This document shows, piece by piece, positions 7,423-17,178 of a DNA stretch of 20,000 bases (its first letter is position 1; each line of letters opens with the position of its first letter). Below the pieces are notes generated by a model that made no database searches, was not told the origin of the DNA, and was given only the letters and a program-made list of their open reading frames with translations. Source of the DNA: an uncultured virus (IMG/VR IMGVR_UViG_3300000313_000091) (Duplodnaviria; Heunggongvirae; Uroviricota; Caudoviricetes); the IMG/VR virus record IMGVR_UViG_3300000313_000091. One strand, written 5' to 3'. A program made the translations under genes and the position numbers.

Positions 7423-7860
7423 TTAGTTAGTCCCCGTTGCTTGCAAGGCATTGCGTCTTAATTCACCTTGTATCGTGCCTTGCATCTCTTTTGGGGATGA
7501 TTTTCGTAGATAAACGAGTTTACCCTCATTGTTATAATAACCGGTTTCTCCGTTCTCGGTGAATTTGAAACAAGCTTCTGTAACGAGCTCTGCTTTGGCT
7601 TTCATTTGTTGTATCAATTCATCCATTTCTTTTTCGAGGCTTTTTAATTGCTCTGAATATCCTTTCATAGCTTCCTTTTTCTCCTCGGTTACATCATGAA
7701 CTTTTATAGCCATTCCGGCTAATTGTTCTTTTACATCTTCCATTTTGGCGAGTGAGAATTCTTTTGAGTAAGTTAAACTCTCGACAGCATCGCAATTGTC
7801 TTTCAAAAAGTTTGTACGTTCCAATCCGGAAGTATACTCATGTCCTAATGTTTTATTCAT
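7423..7860 (-). CDS. Hypothetical phage early protein with central coiled coil
   Basis: 145-aa ORF with AT-rich leader, co-oriented in the operon. Confidence 0.75.
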   Translation of the reverse strand: MNKTLGHEYTSGLERTNFLKDNCDAVESLTYSKEFSLAKMEDVKEQLAGMAIKVHDVTEEKKEAMKGYSEQLKSLEKEMDELIQQMKAKAELVTEACFKFTENGETGYYNNEGKLVYLRKSSPKEMQGTIQGELRRNALQATGTN

Positions 7861-7892
7861 TTCGTTTATATTTTAATTAAATAGTTACTTGC

Positions 7893-8108
7893 TTATATTT
7901 TTGTAATATCATTGTCTGATGCGACACCTCTTAAGACATTTCCATCAACCATAATCCGATATACTTTTCCAAATCCATCCTCTAAGGAGAAAGAGGCATA
8001 TACTTTTTTTATTTGTGCGACTTTACCAACCATATTAGGTTGTAGATCGTTTGAGGTGATTTTTACTCTATCACCTACACATAATTCTTTACCTGTTTCT
8101 ACTGCCAT
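7893..8108 (-). CDS. Small KOW/SH3-like beta-barrel protein
   Basis: VGDRVKI...GKVAQI pattern, 71 aa. Confidence 0.65.
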   Translation of the reverse strand: MAVETGKELCVGDRVKITSNDLQPNMVGKVAQIKKVYASFSLEDGFGKVYRIMVDGNVLRGVASDNDITKI

Positions 8109-8135
8109 TATTTTATATTTAAATGATTAATACTC

Positions 8136-8170
8136 AAATAAAAATGGAGCTCGGATGATTCCAAGCTCCA
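8136..8170 (-). terminator. Intrinsic terminator in early-operon leader
   Basis: Minus strand TGGAGCTTGG-AATCAT-CCGAGCTCCA-TTTTTATTT. Confidence 0.7.
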
Positions 8171-8263
8171 TGCAAGAAGAAAATTTACCTAATGCCTTAT
8201 GCAATTCATTCCATGGTGAGTATCAAACCCATACCCCAATCTGCTTGCATATTTTTCATATGA

Positions 8264-8426
8264 TTGTGGGCAAAGCGGGGTTCGAACCCGCAGAAGTATC
8301 GTCGACGTTATGTTTTCGCAAAGCTACTCGCATTAATAGCCGCACCGGTCTTCATGATATTCAAGTTATGTACAACTCACTTGAATTAATTCATTGAGCC
8401 TGTTTTTCCGTAATGCTCATTTGCCC
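8264..8426 (-). ncRNA. Expanded tRNA-like element (~160 nt)
   Basis: Acceptor GGGCAAA(8426-8420)/TTTGCCC(8274-8268); T arm GCGGG-TTCGAAC-CCCGC; D-like GAGC/GCTC stem; oversized central arms; no canonical anticodon loop. Confidence 0.6.
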
Positions 8427-8653
8427 GTTTGCCCGCCAAGAGGCGACGGGCTTAACCTTTTACCAAATAACTTCTTGCGATGTAGAACCAAGTAGGAGAC
8501 TTTCGCTACACTTGTCTTTTTATTCAAAAACGAATAAATCTTTGTATGAAGACATAAATTTTAATAAAGCGTCTTCATTTTTCTTTAGTGCGAAGTTTTT
8601 AGTTTCCCTTTACATCCCTTTTTTTGTTATGTATTAATTCATGGATTGCCACG

Positions 8654-8947
8654 TCAGCTGTTTACTTGACTAGGATCTACTGTTCCAACTGCTATATCCG
8701 ATGGACTTGGCTCACTAGATAGGGGAGGCGTAGGCTCATTTTGTGTATCAGTATTGGATGGAGTTGCATCTATTTTTCCACTTATCGAACCGTCTGTCTC
8801 TTCGATAGACTTGTTTGGATCCATCGCTACTTCATTCCTACTACAGAATTTGTAGTAAACATTAGCTAGACTAATGATACTTTCATTTGGTTTTGCTTGT
8901 GTTGCTGCCAAATACAAACATTTTAATCTTAACTTTTTACCGAACAT
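8654..8947 (-). CDS. Hypothetical protein with S/P/T/D-rich disordered tail
   Basis: 97-aa ORF with AT-rich leader, co-oriented with the early operon. Confidence 0.55.
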   Translation of the reverse strand: MFGKKLRLKCLYLAATQAKPNESIISLANVYYKFCSRNEVAMDPNKSIEETDGSISGKIDATPSNTDTQNEPTPPLSSEPSPSDIAVGTVDPSQVNS

Positions 8948-9887: not shown

Positions 9888-9950
9888 CAAAGTTAGTACA
9901 TATTTCTGTATTAAAAAATAAATAGTACAGAATAATGTACTATTTATTTT
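9888..9950 (-). promoter_or_regulatory. Leftward early promoter with two operator palindromes
   Basis: TAACTTTG (9895-9888); AGTACA-N6-TGTATT (9895-9912) and AGTACA-N6-TGTACT (9924-9941), the latter within a perfect 15-bp inverted repeat at 9915-9950. Confidence 0.75.
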
Positions 9951-10040: not shown

Positions 10041-10388
10041 ATGAGAAGAAAAATAACAGAAGAAGAGTTTGAATTTTTAGACCAAGCATTAAGGTGCCGT
10101 AAGATGTTTAGAAATGATATACTACAATATCCAAGTGAATTAGTTAACAGATTAGTTGGAGATGGAATGATAAAATTAGGTAAGAGCGGAATTGAAATCG
10201 AAGCTGAAATAACAGAGGATGGGATAGGTAGTAGATCTGATTATCTCAATCCTCCTATAAAAGAAGTTCATAAAGAAGAAAAAATAGGCAATAAGGTAAT
10301 AAACAGTTTATGGTTCAAAATTTTATTGCCTATTTTAGGATTAATAATTGCGCTGCTCGAATTGGCTTTGCAATGGGGGAAAAAATAA
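10041..10388 (+). CDS. Hypothetical protein with C-terminal TM helix
   Basis: 115 aa; LWFKILLPILGLIIALLELALQWGKK tail; N-terminus possibly winged-helix-like. Confidence 0.75.
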   Translation: MRRKITEEEFEFLDQALRCRKMFRNDILQYPSELVNRLVGDGMIKLGKSGIEIEAEITEDGIGSRSDYLNPPIKEVHKEEKIGNKVINSLWFKILLPILGLIIALLELALQWGKK

Positions 10389-10537: not shown

Positions 10538-10633
10538 TCAAAAAAATAATGTAGCTATTGCTTCTACTATTAAGGTTGTAGTTGCGCTTGCAATAATGGA
10601 AGTGATAATACATTCTTTTGTCTCTTTTTTCAT
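10538..10633 (-). CDS. 31-aa single-TM peptide
   Basis: MKKETKECIITSIIASATTTLIVEAIATLFF; A-rich leader. Confidence 0.55.
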   Translation of the reverse strand: MKKETKECIITSIIASATTTLIVEAIATLFF

Positions 10634-10758
10634 TGTTCTTTGATTTATTTGTAAACGGTTTAATTTTTCGCGAAAATTTTTGCCAAAAATATTTTTAATT
10701 GATTTACTATCTAATAATTAATATTCTTAAGCAAGAGTTTTGAAAGGAAACGGGCAGT

Positions 10759-11141
10759 AAAAGTTCTTTTAGGTGTTTTGGGTACCAAAAGAACAAAATA
10801 CTACATGGTGATATGCTCTTAAGCAATGGCTCGTCAGAGGTTTCCGTATGCAGGTAGGCATCAAATAAGTTATCCTACTCTCAGCTCTTTTCTTCATCTC
10901 TTATTCAGATGTATGCGCGTCGCTGATTTAGTTAACGCCCGGATATTAGCATATTTCATCGATCCGGTTTTCAATGCAGATCGACCATATACTAACCGAA
11001 AGCTCCTGCATTGGGGCATTACACTATTGTGCAATAAGAAACCCGTAATAGATAGCAGCTATTACGGGCATATAATGAGACATTCCGGATGGATTGTCGT
11101 AAATAATCTATGTTCCTGTAACATCTGCTATATGTTACAAG
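10759..11141 (-). ncRNA. Candidate structured ncRNA or long leader with complementary hairpin loops
   Basis: At least six stems, with G-U pairs favouring the minus strand; begins directly after a TAACTTTG element; loops ATAGCAG and CTGCTAT are complementary. Confidence 0.6.
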
Positions 11142-11144
11142 AGA

Positions 11145-11169
11145 CAAAGTTAATACAGAAGTATGTAGT
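11145..11169 (-). promoter_or_regulatory. Second leftward promoter with a third operator copy
   Basis: TAACTTTG (11152-11145) abutting AATACA-GAAGTA-TGTAGT (11152-11169), 16/18 identical to the reverse complement of the 9895-9912 operator. Confidence 0.7.
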
Positions 11170-11190
11170 ATAAAACAAAAATAAGATAAA

Positions 11191-11928
11191 ATGAATGAAA
11201 TAACCGAAAGATTTTTTAATGTGATAGATCAAATGGGGTTAAAACCTTATACGGTATCTAAAGATATATCATTTATTTCTCAGCAAAAAATGACAAATGC
11301 CAAAAAAGCTAGAAATGGTGTAAGCGTAGACATGATAAGTGCATTGTGCTCATATTATGAAAATATCAATGCAGAATATATTATTACAGGAAAGGGTTCT
11401 CCATTAAAAGATAATTCGCCTATTCCTTTGTCTGAAGGACAGACAATAGAAACAATAGATGATTATAAAGAAGCCGTAAATAGGGGTGTGGATTTGATTC
11501 CAGAAGTGAATTTCAAATTTGCGGCTGGTCAAACGGCATTGGTCAATGGGGTAGAAAATGTAACAAGGTATTGGTATTTGCCAGACTGCAAGGATTGTGA
11601 AGGAGTAGCTCAAGTAGTAGGAAATTCTATGTCTCCAGTTCTTCCTTCCGGATGTTGGGTAGCTTTAAAGAAGGTTACTATTCCAAGCAATCCATTGCAA
11701 ATTCCTTTTGGAAGTATATTTGGCATTGTGGTTGAAGATTCTGAAACAGAAGAATATCGCGGGCATATAAAGGTATTGAGGAGATATAAGGATCCTGCAA
11801 AGGAAGGGAAGTATTGGATAGCTCATTCTATTAACGAAAAAGACTTTGATGATTTTGATATTGAGATATCTCAAGTGAGAAGTCTATGGATTGTGAAACA
11901 ACATGTTGTAAGCGATATATTATTATGA
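11191..11928 (+). CDS. CI/LexA-like phage repressor (HTH plus S24 peptidase)
   Basis: N-terminal HTH with INAEYIITGKG; Ala-Gly site FAAG; GNSMSP serine and HIKVL lysine motifs. Confidence 0.9.
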   Translation: MNEITERFFNVIDQMGLKPYTVSKDISFISQQKMTNAKKARNGVSVDMISALCSYYENINAEYIITGKGSPLKDNSPIPLSEGQTIETIDDYKEAVNRGVDLIPEVNFKFAAGQTALVNGVENVTRYWYLPDCKDCEGVAQVVGNSMSPVLPSGCWVALKKVTIPSNPLQIPFGSIFGIVVEDSETEEYRGHIKVLRRYKDPAKEGKYWIAHSINEKDFDDFDIEISQVRSLWIVKQHVVSDILL

Positions 11929-14310: not shown

Positions 14311-17178
14311 CTAGTCTTTATGTTTCTTAGGCTGTTTGTTTAATCGATAGATCACATGAAACAAGAAATATCTTGGAAGTACATTGTAGTAGGTTTCCAC
14401 TCGTCCTTGCGCATTGATGGTGCGTTGCACATTGGAGAGGTTACTTAAAATGTCAAATCCGTCAAGTACAAAGATCAAGTTGCCATGCATAGCTCGTTGT
14501 GAAAGACGAGCATTCCATATCAACTCATTGGTGTTCATGTTGTGATCCTCATAGCCGCGTCGTCCGTACTCCGTTAAATCCATGTTGAGTTGCATATTCC
14601 AAGGAAATTCAACCTGCCCTGAAAAACCATAATTGAAATCTGCCGCATTGATCGTATTGAAATCTTCACGTGCGCTTTCGGAATGCGTCCATTTGCAACG
14701 ACTAATAACATTTAAAGATAGCTTGTCTCTATGAAATCTGCATTCCAAGGATTGAGTGAGGTAAAGCGACTGTACAGTACTACGATTGCCTGTATTGCTA
14801 CCGGCTACACTCACCAAATCCACATTGTGTTCATACTGCCCATTTGTGCCGGTATTGAATGTGAAAAGCTTCTTGGCATCCAATGGACAAGTATAATTCA
14901 CATCCGCCGTTCCATTCCAATTTCCGTTTATGTTATCCGGTTTAGTTGTGCGTATACCTGTGGCTTTATCGTAGACATATCCCATTGCCACGGCATTCTG
15001 CGTTATTCCATAATTCGTACTTACGTTGAAAATTCTTTGGTCATCAGATATGTTGCGATATGATAATGACATATTGTGTGAACGGGTATTTTTAAGATTC
15101 GGATTGCCCAATGTTACATATAACGGATTGGAATCATCGCGGACGTTTAGCAGATTATTCATAGATGGAGCTGATGAGTTACAACGATAATCGAATGAGA
15201 TTGATTTTTTCCATCCATTTATTGTCTTAGAAATACGTAGTCCCGGACTAAACAACCCTACATTACGTGTTAATGTGGTGTCAAGTGAAGCTCGTTGATA
15301 AACAAGCTGGTTTTTATCCAAATGGAATGGTAATTGTACGTCGAAATTCATTTCCTTTTTCCCTTTTTTACCTAAGCGCCAATGAATGTCTGAGCCCACA
15401 TCATGTGAATAGTTATATCCTCGTGAGTAATAACTGTTTTTTGCATCGATTGCCAACTGAAGCGAATCAGCTGTCGAAGGCAAGGAACCTAGTTCATGGC
15501 TACCAAAAGTTTTCCATCCAGCCAAACCATCAAGCCTATAAAGTGAGCTGATGCTTGATTGATAGGACTGCCCATAGCCATAGTAAGGTACTATAGAGAG
15601 CCGGGAAGATACATTATACCAATATTCGGCCCTCAACTTATAGTCGTAATTTTTACCTGGCGTAGTGTTATATTGATTTCTAGCATCCGTTGGCGATGAT
15701 GAATTAGAAGGATAATCTAGACGAGAATGACTGTAATTATTATTTTTTTGATCAGTATAAGTGAAGTTTCCCGTAAGCGAGATATAGTCGTTACTATGAG
15801 GCATCTTTACCATTGACATCATATTTGTAGATAATGTCAAAGAATGATTATTTCCTATCGCATTTGATACGTTTCTGTTGATAGCAATTTTTCGCATCAA
15901 GCTTCCTGGGTTTGACGTATAAATACTATCTATTAATCCCTTATTGAAATATTTTGAAGGTTCGTCAGAAAAGGTAGCCGAGAGTGAGTTGCTTAGCGTA
16001 TTTGCTTTAGAATACATTAGATTCGTCATAAAAAAGATTCCTCCTTTTGAGCTATTAAACCATGAGATCGTATTCGAAAGATTATACCCAGTGTTGTTGG
16101 TATGCACATCACTCAAACTTCGCCCGTAAGTATCACCGCCTGATAGGAAGTTTACGCTATTCACATTATTCTGCTCATTGGTATTTGTACGGATGACTTG
16201 GGCAGCACCGTCAATATTTAAATTATGGGTATTTTCATAGTTATAATTTACGCCTGCTGTTTTAGTAGTAATGAGAGCTCTAGACCCGGAAACAGGTGTC
16301 GATTCATTATTCTCACCGGGCTCTTGCATATCACCAAGGTTGTTGTCGTTGCCAAATACTGAAAGATGAAGCCTTGATGTAAACAGCGAACCGAAAGCTT
16401 TGCCAAGATAGCGATTGTTTGAGCCTGTTCCAACTTCCATATTCGATATCCACCCGAATGAATAATCGCGTTTTAGTTGTACATCAATTACCAACTTCTT
16501 GTCATTGGCATCACGTCCCATGATTTTGCTCATATCACCCTCTTTTTCATAGACCTTCACTTTGCCTACCATGTAGGCAGGTAAATTCTTTAGCAACACT
16601 TTGTTATCACCTTTAAAAAACTCTTTGCCGTTCAATAACATGCTTTCAATATATTTCCCATTCATAAAGATGCGCCCATCGCTTTTTAATTCAGCTCCGG
16701 GTAGTTGTTTTATTAAGGCATCAAGCATAGAACCTTCAGATAATTGGAAAGCATCGGCATTATAAACCAACGTGTCACCATTGACATAGAACTTTATTCT
16801 GGTAGCTTTGACCGTCACTTCGCCTAATTGGTGTGTATGAATCTTCTTGAACATCTCCGTCTTACCGACATATCGATTCATTTCGCGACGGTAAAACTTC
16901 ACGTCTATATCTTTGTAGACCGTTTCATAACCAGGATGGGTGAGACGGAGAATATGTTTACCATCATTCACTTTTAAGGCATAAAATGACCATTGCGTAT
17001 AAGCGGTATCTATCACCGTGCTGTCCGTTCGCATTAATTCAACACGTACACTGTCAATTCTTTCTTTCGTAATTGCATCAACAACGCTTCCTCCTATTTC
17101 TTTTTTCTTATCATTTTCTGTAGAAAACAAAACATACGGTAGTAAAAGTAACGGAAGCAGACATATATATTTTTTCAT
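14311..17178 (-). CDS. Outer-membrane beta-barrel protein (TonB-dependent-receptor-like, N-terminal carboxypeptidase-regulatory-like domain)
   Basis: Signal peptide, LGEVTVKA, GDTLVYNADAF, LIKQLPG, GNPNLK, C-terminal PRYFLFHVIYRLN; 955 aa. Confidence 0.88.
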   Translation of the reverse strand: MKKYICLLPLLLLPYVLFSTENDKKKEIGGSVVDAITKERIDSVRVELMRTDSTVIDTAYTQWSFYALKVNDGKHILRLTHPGYETVYKDIDVKFYRREMNRYVGKTEMFKKIHTHQLGEVTVKATRIKFYVNGDTLVYNADAFQLSEGSMLDALIKQLPGAELKSDGRIFMNGKYIESMLLNGKEFFKGDNKVLLKNLPAYMVGKVKVYEKEGDMSKIMGRDANDKKLVIDVQLKRDYSFGWISNMEVGTGSNNRYLGKAFGSLFTSRLHLSVFGNDNNLGDMQEPGENNESTPVSGSRALITTKTAGVNYNYENTHNLNIDGAAQVIRTNTNEQNNVNSVNFLSGGDTYGRSLSDVHTNNTGYNLSNTISWFNSSKGGIFFMTNLMYSKANTLSNSLSATFSDEPSKYFNKGLIDSIYTSNPGSLMRKIAINRNVSNAIGNNHSLTLSTNMMSMVKMPHSNDYISLTGNFTYTDQKNNNYSHSRLDYPSNSSSPTDARNQYNTTPGKNYDYKLRAEYWYNVSSRLSIVPYYGYGQSYQSSISSLYRLDGLAGWKTFGSHELGSLPSTADSLQLAIDAKNSYYSRGYNYSHDVGSDIHWRLGKKGKKEMNFDVQLPFHLDKNQLVYQRASLDTTLTRNVGLFSPGLRISKTINGWKKSISFDYRCNSSAPSMNNLLNVRDDSNPLYVTLGNPNLKNTRSHNMSLSYRNISDDQRIFNVSTNYGITQNAVAMGYVYDKATGIRTTKPDNINGNWNGTADVNYTCPLDAKKLFTFNTGTNGQYEHNVDLVSVAGSNTGNRSTVQSLYLTQSLECRFHRDKLSLNVISRCKWTHSESAREDFNTINAADFNYGFSGQVEFPWNMQLNMDLTEYGRRGYEDHNMNTNELIWNARLSQRAMHGNLIFVLDGFDILSNLSNVQRTINAQGRVETYYNVLPRYFLFHVIYRLNKQPKKHKD

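Follow-up and report, generated by a model that had tools for sequence, protein, structure and literature searches.

A ~110-nt RNA with covarying complementary loops beside the repressor genes of temperate Bacteroides phages, and its possible role as a transcription attenuator

As judged from sequence comparison, the element described here belongs to a family of ~110-nt RNAs that lie beside the repressor genes of many temperate Bacteroides phages. Its members share a layout that begins with a promoter of the Bacteroides type, on which operator-like palindromes are superimposed, and continues with a 5′ hairpin (P1), a small middle hairpin (P2), an intrinsic-terminator-like hairpin (P3) and a U-run, all opposite to the repressor gene, with complementary apical loops in P1 and P3 (L1 and L3). 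On the basis of predicted folds, our preferred reading, which we hold with slightly better than even confidence, is that the element is a cis-acting leader RNA (attenuator) of a transcript that is controlled by the repressor and directed away from its gene, and that it probably decides between stop and read-through of the first lytic-direction transcript. To our knowledge, almost nothing is known about lysis-lysogeny regulation in gut Bacteroides phages, and it is at this switch that the element sits.

The element was found in a 20,000-nt stretch of DNA from an uncultured virus (IMG/VR record IMGVR_UViG_3300000313_000091; hereafter the window), which is a temperate phage or prophage of the Bacteroides type. 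An initial annotation of this sequence had proposed a novel minus-strand RNA of ~380 nt, with two hairpins whose 7-nt loops are exactly complementary, and all of the features it listed are present where it had placed them. Its proposal that this RNA starts directly 3′ of a promoter with operator-like palindromes is likewise supported. The −7 box of this promoter, TAACTTTG (11145..11152, minus strand), which we take to be such a box from its match to the Bacteroides consensus TAnnTTTG, ends 6 nt before the P1 arm, and the second TTTG (11179-11176, minus strand) is a candidate −33 box. P1 (11115..11141, minus strand) consists of the arms CTTGTAACAT (11141-11132) and ATGTTACAGG (11124-11115) around L1, ATAGCAG (11131-11125), while P2 (11079..11098, minus strand; GACA.TCC....GGA.TGTC) is a predicted fold. 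P3 (11041..11069, minus strand), which was flagged by a terminator scan, consists of the arms CCCGTAATAG (11068-11059) and CTATTACGGG (11051-11042) around L3, CTGCTAT (11058-11052), of which L1 is the exact reverse complement. The U-run 3′ of P3, TTTCTTATT (11033..11041, minus strand), is weaker than in most relatives. The fold signal of the region exceeds chance and depends on the strand: for 10740-11160, the minus strand folds at −121.8 kcal mol–1 with z = −5.1 (none of 100 shuffled sequences folds as well), compared to z = −1.8 for the plus strand. Two further remarks of the initial annotation hold as well, namely that the segment is more GC-rich than its flanks (G+C of 0.39-0.41 at 10775-11149 vs 0.24-0.28) and that G-U pairs favor the minus strand, as strand-specific G-U pairs are seen in P3 and the scores of the covariance model introduced below agree.

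The gene divergent from the element, P0002 (11191..11928, plus strand), encodes a CI/LexA-like repressor (phrog_4, “transcriptional repressor”, E = 3.4e-10). On the strand of the element, an ORF for a 31-aa hydrophobic peptide (10538..10633, minus strand) is the first plausible coding sequence; it has a −7-like box upstream, at about 10683, and leftwards on the minus strand lie genes for an antirepressor, RecT, VRR-NUC and an SNF2 helicase. Several candidate coding sequences within the region were rejected. A 115-aa plus-strand ORF at 10826-11173 has no Pfam match, overlaps the promoter and the conserved RNA, and is broken by indels in the related metagenome contig L242, and a 42-aa minus-strand ORF at 10769-10897 meets a stop after three codons in the same contig. 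A leader peptide starting from an AUG in the 3′ arm of P1 would have 7, 11, 14 or 20 codons with a type-dependent sequence, position 16 is C in one of the loop types (type E), and such a peptide was rejected as a conserved feature. No second element was found near the other minus-strand terminator of the window (8171-8144).

The proposed ~380-nt unit did not survive comparison with relatives, as the conserved part comprises only ~110 nt and ends at the second, terminator-like hairpin and its U-run. What follows in the window is a lineage-specific noncoding module (10759..11032, minus strand) outside the conserved family, which includes a hairpin CAATGCAG/CTGCATTG (11013-10972, minus strand), further stems CCGGAT/ATCCGG, CATCT/AGATG and GTAGG/CCTAC (all minus strand and all present as described), and a terminator-like hairpin GTTCTTTT/AAAAGAAC (10794-10763, minus strand) followed by TTTT (10762-10759). 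In L242, the repressor (161 aa) and the operator differ from those of the window, and the element region is about 75-80% identical to that of the window (estimated from the alignment) with the loops flipped, whereas the ~355 nt downstream of its element are about 98% identical to the window. Within this stretch, 1-nt indels in L242 break every ORF of the module on either strand, and all six substitutions that fall in predicted stems of the module keep pairing; two pairs, both in the hairpin 11013-10972, are changed on both sides. Of the later stems in the initial annotation, CAATGCAG/CTGCATTG is therefore retained in L242 through these two compensatory pairs, while ATTGCAC/GTGTAAT is broken there. 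The fold of the module has z = −3.1 on the minus strand vs −0.9 on the plus strand. Beyond L242, the module was not found in the other loci fetched, an exact 24-mer of it had no match in IMG/VR, and a search of 401 Bacteroidaceae genomes with its DNA gave only chance matches of 30-45 nt. An ORF or other sequence directly follows the element in 45 of the 46 element loci from our repressor search and in all pattern-derived loci. Being limited to the lineage of the window and L242, the module is not part of the family. No further loop-loop pairs were found within it, and the 270 nt are probably a lineage-specific structured RNA or a long 5′ leader of the 31-aa peptide gene (10633-10538), whose counterpart in L242 is divergent with its hydrophobicity retained.

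The initial annotation had predicted that homologues would adjoin the repressors of Bacteroides phages, and this is where they were found. Our starting set comprised 69 IMG/VR loci encoding relatives of the repressor, which reduce to 35 distinct upstream regions; the element is carried by 24 of these regions (46 loci), and is absent from the remaining 11 (23 loci). In all 46 element loci, it lies on the strand opposite to the repressor. A covariance model (R1) built from 22 sequences detects 45 of the 46, the one that it misses (L007) being without P2. In the window, R1 matches 11139-11030 with 74 bits on the minus strand vs 43.6 bits on the plus strand, and for elements of the loop type that we call B, the element strand scores 125 bits vs 29 bits for the opposite strand. 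We also scanned for the family without presupposing the loop sequences, using the P1 stem with any 9-nt loop, a P1-stem pattern preceded by a promoter prefix and allowing any base but G at loop position 2 (IMG/VR and metagenomes), and a pattern for P2 alone with the loops left free (IMG/VR). The P2 pattern matched 94 IMG/VR stretches (41 distinct sequences), all of which carry the element. The window’s own loop type was not found in IMG/VR by the pattern scans. R1, which is biased to types B and C, gave no match in three whole genomes, though two of these hold elements of type A. Relatives of the repressor also occur in Bacteroides muris, B. pyogenes and one Bacteroidaceae bin.

TAnnTTTG occurs in 62 of 64 distinct regions upstream of the element, where it ends at a distance of 4-5 nt from the P1 arm, and a second TTTG lies ~20 nt upstream of the −7 box in homologous regions. 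The palindromes between the −33 and −7 boxes differ greatly in sequence among homologues. These variable palindromes look like operators, and their position over the promoter suggests that it is repressed in lysogens.

Among GenBank phages, a blastn search with the type A element returned a single match, the cultured Bacteroides phage BS-TP2 (PQ571275.1), which carries at 11169-11287 a type A element 95% identical to that of one of our loci (L021). The element lies there in unannotated DNA, 22 nt from a gene annotated as “transcriptional repressor”. This phage has been reported in 33.5% of 930 metaviromes (PMC12694917), and a term search of the main text of that paper found mention of neither a repressor nor noncoding RNA. 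Neither the 421-nt region of the window nor the type B element gave a blastn match among GenBank phages, and the same holds for a tblastn search of these phages with the repressor at E ≤ 1e-10.

Evidence that the two loops pair comes from their covariation. Including the window, we found eight loop-pair variants (given as L1/L3): type W of the window (ATAGCAG/CTGCTAT), type W′ of L242, in which both loops are flipped (CTGCTAT/ATAGCAG), type A (GTTGCGG/CCGCAAC), type B (GTTGCAG/CTGCAAC), type C (GTACGAG/CTCGTAC), type D (GTAGCAG/CTGCTAC, in L409), type E (GTAGGAG/CTCCTAC, in L306) and type F (GGTCGAG/CTCGACC, in L320). All 41 distinct elements from the P2 pattern are complementary at 7 of 7 loop positions. 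On an alignment of 32 distinct elements from which type A was left out (A7), 223 of 224 L1:L3 cells are paired (99.6%), with six of the seven pairs changed on both sides, whereas 35-47% of cells pair across the whole structure in a control in which the 3′ partners were slid; the seventh pair covaries once type A is added. Loss of loop complementarity in homologues would have counted against the initial annotation, and instead we find it kept through compensatory changes at all seven positions, the sole exception to full complementarity being one element (L094) with a single A-C mismatch, which is also without a U-run. For comparison, the chance that a given pair of 7-nt loops is complementary is about 4^-7. 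A structure-only scan returned 30 distinct candidates with 7/7 complementary loops and seven with 4/7 or fewer, compared to four candidates in shuffled DNA, and across the 401 Bacteroidaceae genomes none of 14 chance occurrences of a 15-mer containing loop 1 had a downstream loop-3 complement, unlike the one true element. The hairpins themselves are also largely paired on A7. P1 is 98.4% paired with none of its six pairs changed on both sides (types B-F/W), and two of its pairs covary between type A and the other types; the equivalents of P2 are 89.8% paired with two covarying pairs, and P3 is 98.4% paired with three.

The loop type is uncoupled from the protein repressor. Within one cluster of repressors (at least 90% identity, 13 loci), the element is of type B in ten loci and of type A in three, and both operators and downstream genes vary within each loop type. 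By this comparison, the element is an autonomous module, and the loops are not operator sites of the adjoining repressor.

P3 has the make-up of an intrinsic terminator or attenuator, being a stable hairpin with an immediate U-run that lies a short way downstream of a promoter and precedes a gene. Among types B-F/W, a U-run follows P3 in 48 of 51 distinct elements, and in L242 it is T8. Because the three distinct elements without a U-run nevertheless retain complementary loops, loop pairing may matter independently of termination. In most lineages the first ORF starts 6-38 nt 3′ of P3, and many of these ORFs encode small hydrophobic peptides of 20-81 aa. A spacing of 6-38 nt leaves no room for a promoter of their own, and expression of these ORFs therefore needs read-through of P3. 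In the window itself, two features count against an attenuator, namely the weak U-run and the lack of an ORF for about 400 nt. Downstream of the element, type A loci have a small ORF and then a convergent gene for a protein of 145-205 aa with N-terminal hydrophobic segments. The window likewise has an ORF convergent to the element transcript (10041..10388, plus strand), encoding 115 aa with a C-terminal hydrophobic segment, and its C-terminus is conserved in L242.

Taking these features together with the predicted energetics, we envisage the following sequence of events. Transcription would start 4-6 nt before P1, and the RNA would fold as P1, P2 and P3 with its U-run, with pairing between L1 and L3 as the decision point. 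Once the 5′ arm of P3 and L3 emerge from the polymerase, L1 would capture L3, and in most types the 3′ arm of P1 could then shift onto the 5′ arm of P3, forming a long-range antiterminator helix that would prevent the terminator, such that RNA polymerase would read into the small gene 6-38 nt beyond P3. If P1 is instead kept closed, P3 would form, possibly still kissing P1, and transcription would stop with release of a compact ~110-nt RNA. P1 would thus play the part of an anti-antiterminator, L1:L3 with its extension that of an antiterminator, and P3 that of a terminator. Candidate inputs that could tip the balance are polymerase speed, a factor binding to the highly conserved P1 stem, and the concentration of the RNA itself. 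We infer that transcription starts and stops at these points, and likewise which fold wins in the cell and what tips the balance.

The predicted folds are consistent with this scheme. When the RNA is cut at L3, the minimum-free-energy fold is the L1:L3 helix extended by pairing of the P1 3′ arm with the P3 5′ arm in seven of the eight types. The alternative helix, whose 18 pairs join the P1 hairpin to the top of P3, has 97.6% of its cells paired on A7, vs 17-53% in slid controls. For the nascent RNA, the alternative helix is predicted to be 7-14 kcal mol–1 better than the P1-closed fold in all eight representatives (and 4-8 kcal mol–1 better in 10 of 10 type A sequences), whereas the finished RNA prefers P1 + P3 in seven of the eight; among finished type A sequences, P1 + P3 is the minimum-free-energy fold in nine of ten, and ties with the L1:L3 fold in the tenth. 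We note that these nearest-neighbor energies leave out tertiary kissing and folding kinetics. Upstream pairing that is mutually exclusive with the terminator arm is found when wobble pairs are used, as judged from predicted energies and conservation, while no plain Watson-Crick complement of at least 6 nt to a P3 arm was found upstream. In type A, the helix extends past the loops by only about 3 bp. In its flanks, the alternative helix shows one-sided, wobble-compatible changes, and true covariation is confined to the seven loop pairs, so a static kiss explains the covariation equally well. The tertiary kiss of the initial annotation is therefore upheld insofar as the loops pair, but this pairing may just as well form the core of an alternative antiterminator helix as a static contact. 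In sum, the original observation is confirmed, far more strongly than a single sequence could show, and its interpretation partly supported.

A static fold of this kind, in which P1 and P3 both stay closed in a permanent intramolecular kissing complex and there is no switch, is an unlikely alternative. Its product would be a compact, nuclease-resistant small RNA of ~110 nt or the 5′ domain of an mRNA, acting through its stability or as a recognition platform for a protein or RNase III. With its full complementarity and a length of exactly 7 nt, L3 has the loop size of ColE1 RNA I/RNA II, and we estimate that a linker of 45-50 nt would allow an intramolecular kiss. Covariation backs P1 and P3 as hairpins (two and three pairs, respectively), the finished RNA favors them, and the three elements that lack a U-run but have complementary loops would also fit. 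However, a static fold leaves the expression of ORFs 6-38 nt past a strong terminator unexplained, and would reduce to coincidence the complementarity that types B-F/W conserve between the whole P1 hairpin and the top of P3.

Alternatively, the terminated leader could pair through its loops with other copies in trans, as dimers, multimers or with nascent leaders of the same type, thereby raising or lowering termination as a form of RNA-level immunity or feedback, in the manner of P4 CI RNA or of IsrK on its own read-through transcript. This we consider quite unlikely. The loops evolve faster than the P1 stem (6/7 loop pairs changed on both sides vs 0/6 in P1), as expected of specificity determinants, the loop types are not coupled to the protein repressor, and there are precedents in P4 CI RNA and IsrK (PMC4825925) and in a phage leader that, once terminated, works as a small RNA (PMC7547250). 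The cis partner would, however, be present at far higher local concentration, and the promoter looks repressed in lysogens. In addition, comparison of the eight types shows that they are connected by single-pair steps, like ordinary compensatory drift, and the flipped pair of the window and L242 would still cross-pair, making it a poor route to new specificity. The more specific proposal that the loop pair is an RNA “address”, by which leaders recognize only leaders with matching loops, in cis and in trans, and so switch termination, strikes us as just as doubtful. Were it true, Bacteroides phages would have a second immunity or feedback code, encoded in RNA and separate from the protein repressor, which would diversify by single-pair steps and loop flips.

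Less probable again is an antisense or convergent device, in which the RNA would act against a long lysogenic mRNA that runs through the element into the repressor gene, with the loops initiating pairing to this mRNA, or the promoter interfering with it, such that repressor synthesis is turned off after induction. In none of 15 loci is there a canonical plus-strand −7 box within 170 nt of the repressor ATG, which is why the element RNA may, in addition, run antisense to a long repressor mRNA. Two facing boxes lie further upstream, at 820-990 nt in type A loci and at about 1300 nt in the window, with a co-oriented membrane-protein gene between these boxes and the repressor. Nevertheless, weak activator-dependent repressor promoters are often without a consensus box, and antisense pairing requires no complementarity between loops on the same strand, which leaves the central observation unexplained; such a device could also coexist with an attenuator. 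Finally, while on DNA the two 7-mers form an inverted repeat with a spacing of about 70 bp, close to a regulated promoter, we regard it as extremely improbable that they are inverted DNA binding sites covarying to fit one protein, as each forms the exact apex of a hairpin with strand-specific G-U pairs in its stem, the loop type is uncoupled from the adjoining repressor, and the flip in L242 reverses the orientation of a DNA site but is neutral for RNA pairing.

Returning to the attenuator as the preferred reading, the family is amenable to testing, as the element is carried by the cultured phage BS-TP2. Its design is compact, with two hairpin loops that would choose between stop and read-through, and has already been validated by natural variation, which provides eight natural and mutually orthogonal loop pairs. 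If the mechanism is confirmed, the element would represent a new leader architecture in RNA biology, and could provide portable orthogonal transcription gates for the engineering of Bacteroides.

No match to a described family was found in Rfam. At gathering thresholds, Rfam 15 gives no match in the window, with only noise at E-values up to 10, and the best scores in E-value scans of the window and of type A and type B elements (8.9-19.9 bits) are far below the thresholds. At the position of the element in nine homologous loci there is likewise no Rfam match, with DUF2693-FD RNA and tRNAs found elsewhere in these loci. Our literature searches found no description of the element, the main text of a microbiome RNA catalogue (PMC8040213) contains no kissing or repressor-linked motif, and short strings of the element were not found in those of its supplements that were searched.

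The closest functional comparison is with classical attenuators, that is, leaders of the trp, pyr and bgl types with a terminator, an antiterminator and an anti-antiterminator. As in these, the element lies at the 5′ end of a transcript and has an intrinsic terminator and an upstream segment that can pair with the 5′ arm of this terminator, and its first hairpin would compete for the terminator-pairing segment. Unlike in these, the predicted antiterminator is nucleated by two complementary apical loops, which could also meet as a kiss between intact hairpins, and the element shows no sign of a leader peptide, a ligand pocket or a known RNA-binding protein. Kissing hairpins are familiar from ColE1 RNA I/RNA II and R1 CopA/CopT, and from the dimerization site of HIV-1, which converts a kiss to a duplex. 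The element shares with these its fully complementary 7-nt loops and the possible spread of the kiss into the stems, but in those systems the partners are on opposite strands or two molecules, whereas here a single short RNA contains both hairpins, of which one is a terminator. The put sites of phage HK022, two adjacent stem-loops that cause polymerase to ignore distant terminators, are similarly protein-independent cis RNAs just downstream of an early phage promoter that affect termination; they are without loop-loop complementarity or a terminator of their own, and we set them apart by description only. Complementary loops are also reminiscent of a phi29-type pRNA, but the element has no Rfam match, and the genomic place of pRNA differs from a site beside a temperate-phage repressor.

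Among phage leaders, the element resembles P4 CI RNA and the c4 RNA of P1/P7 in that short complementary segments on one transcript would govern premature termination. The pairs of the P1/P7 c4 antisense RNA covary between related phages. A complement to two flanking sites, as in P4 CI and C4 RNAs, is not seen in the element, which has one partner in each case, and no further complement of L1 or L3 was found in unpaired stretches of the downstream module of the window. In P4, as described in PMC4825925, short complementary RNA segments in the leader govern premature termination. The CI RNA processed from this leader targets two sites, seqA and seqC, by pairing, whereas the element has a single loop pair, is accompanied by a protein repressor, and has no Rfam match. 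IsrK of Gifsy-1 (PMC4825925) and StxS of Stx phages (PMC7547250) are terminated leader transcripts that act as small RNAs, with short terminated and read-through isoforms from one phage promoter, as the element would have; unlike the element, they are without an internal kissing pair, and there is no relation to it in sequence or structure. The nearest analogues are functional and not homologous, and the element is a new RNA family with what our fold models suggest to be an unusual attenuator design.

Between the putative kissing-loop leader RNA of the window (11139-11030, minus strand) and its relative on the metagenome contig L242 (909-1018), the stems are identical and each loop is swapped for its own reverse complement, as if one hairpin loop had been inverted and an inversion of the other had then restored complementarity. 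In the relative locus L104 (395-600, plus strand), a complete element with type B loops (GTTGCAG/CTGCAAC) is followed immediately by a second terminator hairpin carrying the type A loop CCGCAAC, and the same arrangement is found in four further loci (L108, L123, L179 and L180). TTGCGG, without a P1 stem, lies ~37 nt upstream of the second hairpin in such loci, and the arrangement looks like a truncated tandem second element. We note also that a near-palindromic GTT(T/A)AAC motif is kept in the P1-P2 linker of elements of types A (GTTTAAC), B and C (both GTTAAAC, which pairs with TTTAA located 3' of P2), and is not present in the window or L242 elements.

The first ORF behind the element often encodes a small (20-81 aa) hydrophobic peptide, as in the window (10633-10538) and in relatives such as L008, L014, L036, L089, L111 and L126, with sequences that vary from lineage to lineage; others encode small soluble proteins. 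Farther along the same strand, phages with the element also carry the DUF2693-FD RNA (Rfam RF02926, 62-78 bits), which we found on the minus strand of the relative loci L002 (1289-1337 and 1032-1082), L010 (759-807), L021 (1315-1363) and L035 (1261-1309), and not in the window.

ORFs 9828(-) and 10041(+) of the window diverge, and the gap separating them holds, at 9915-9950, a perfect 14-bp inverted repeat with the core AGTACA-N6-TGTACT, accompanied by facing -7 boxes at ~9845(+) and ~9888(-) and similar to the operator-like palindrome at the element promoter of the relative locus L097. The minus strand of the window has only one further strong hairpin of terminator-like form (8171-8144, 12 pairs followed by TTTTT), which stands closely upstream of ORF 8108-7893 and for which no kissing partner was seen. 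On the same strand, 14311-17178 encodes a 955-aa outer-membrane beta-barrel protein (PF14905) and is probably host DNA, such that the prophage end is expected around 13.8-14.3 kb; the window showed no integrase.

In the cultured Bacteroides phage BS-TP2 (L421, PQ571275.1), which carries a type A element, a DDE transposase gene (7493-8851) lies two genes away from the repressor gene. Hankyphage is described (PMC12135933) as a transposable Bacteroides phage with a CI-like repressor at its end.
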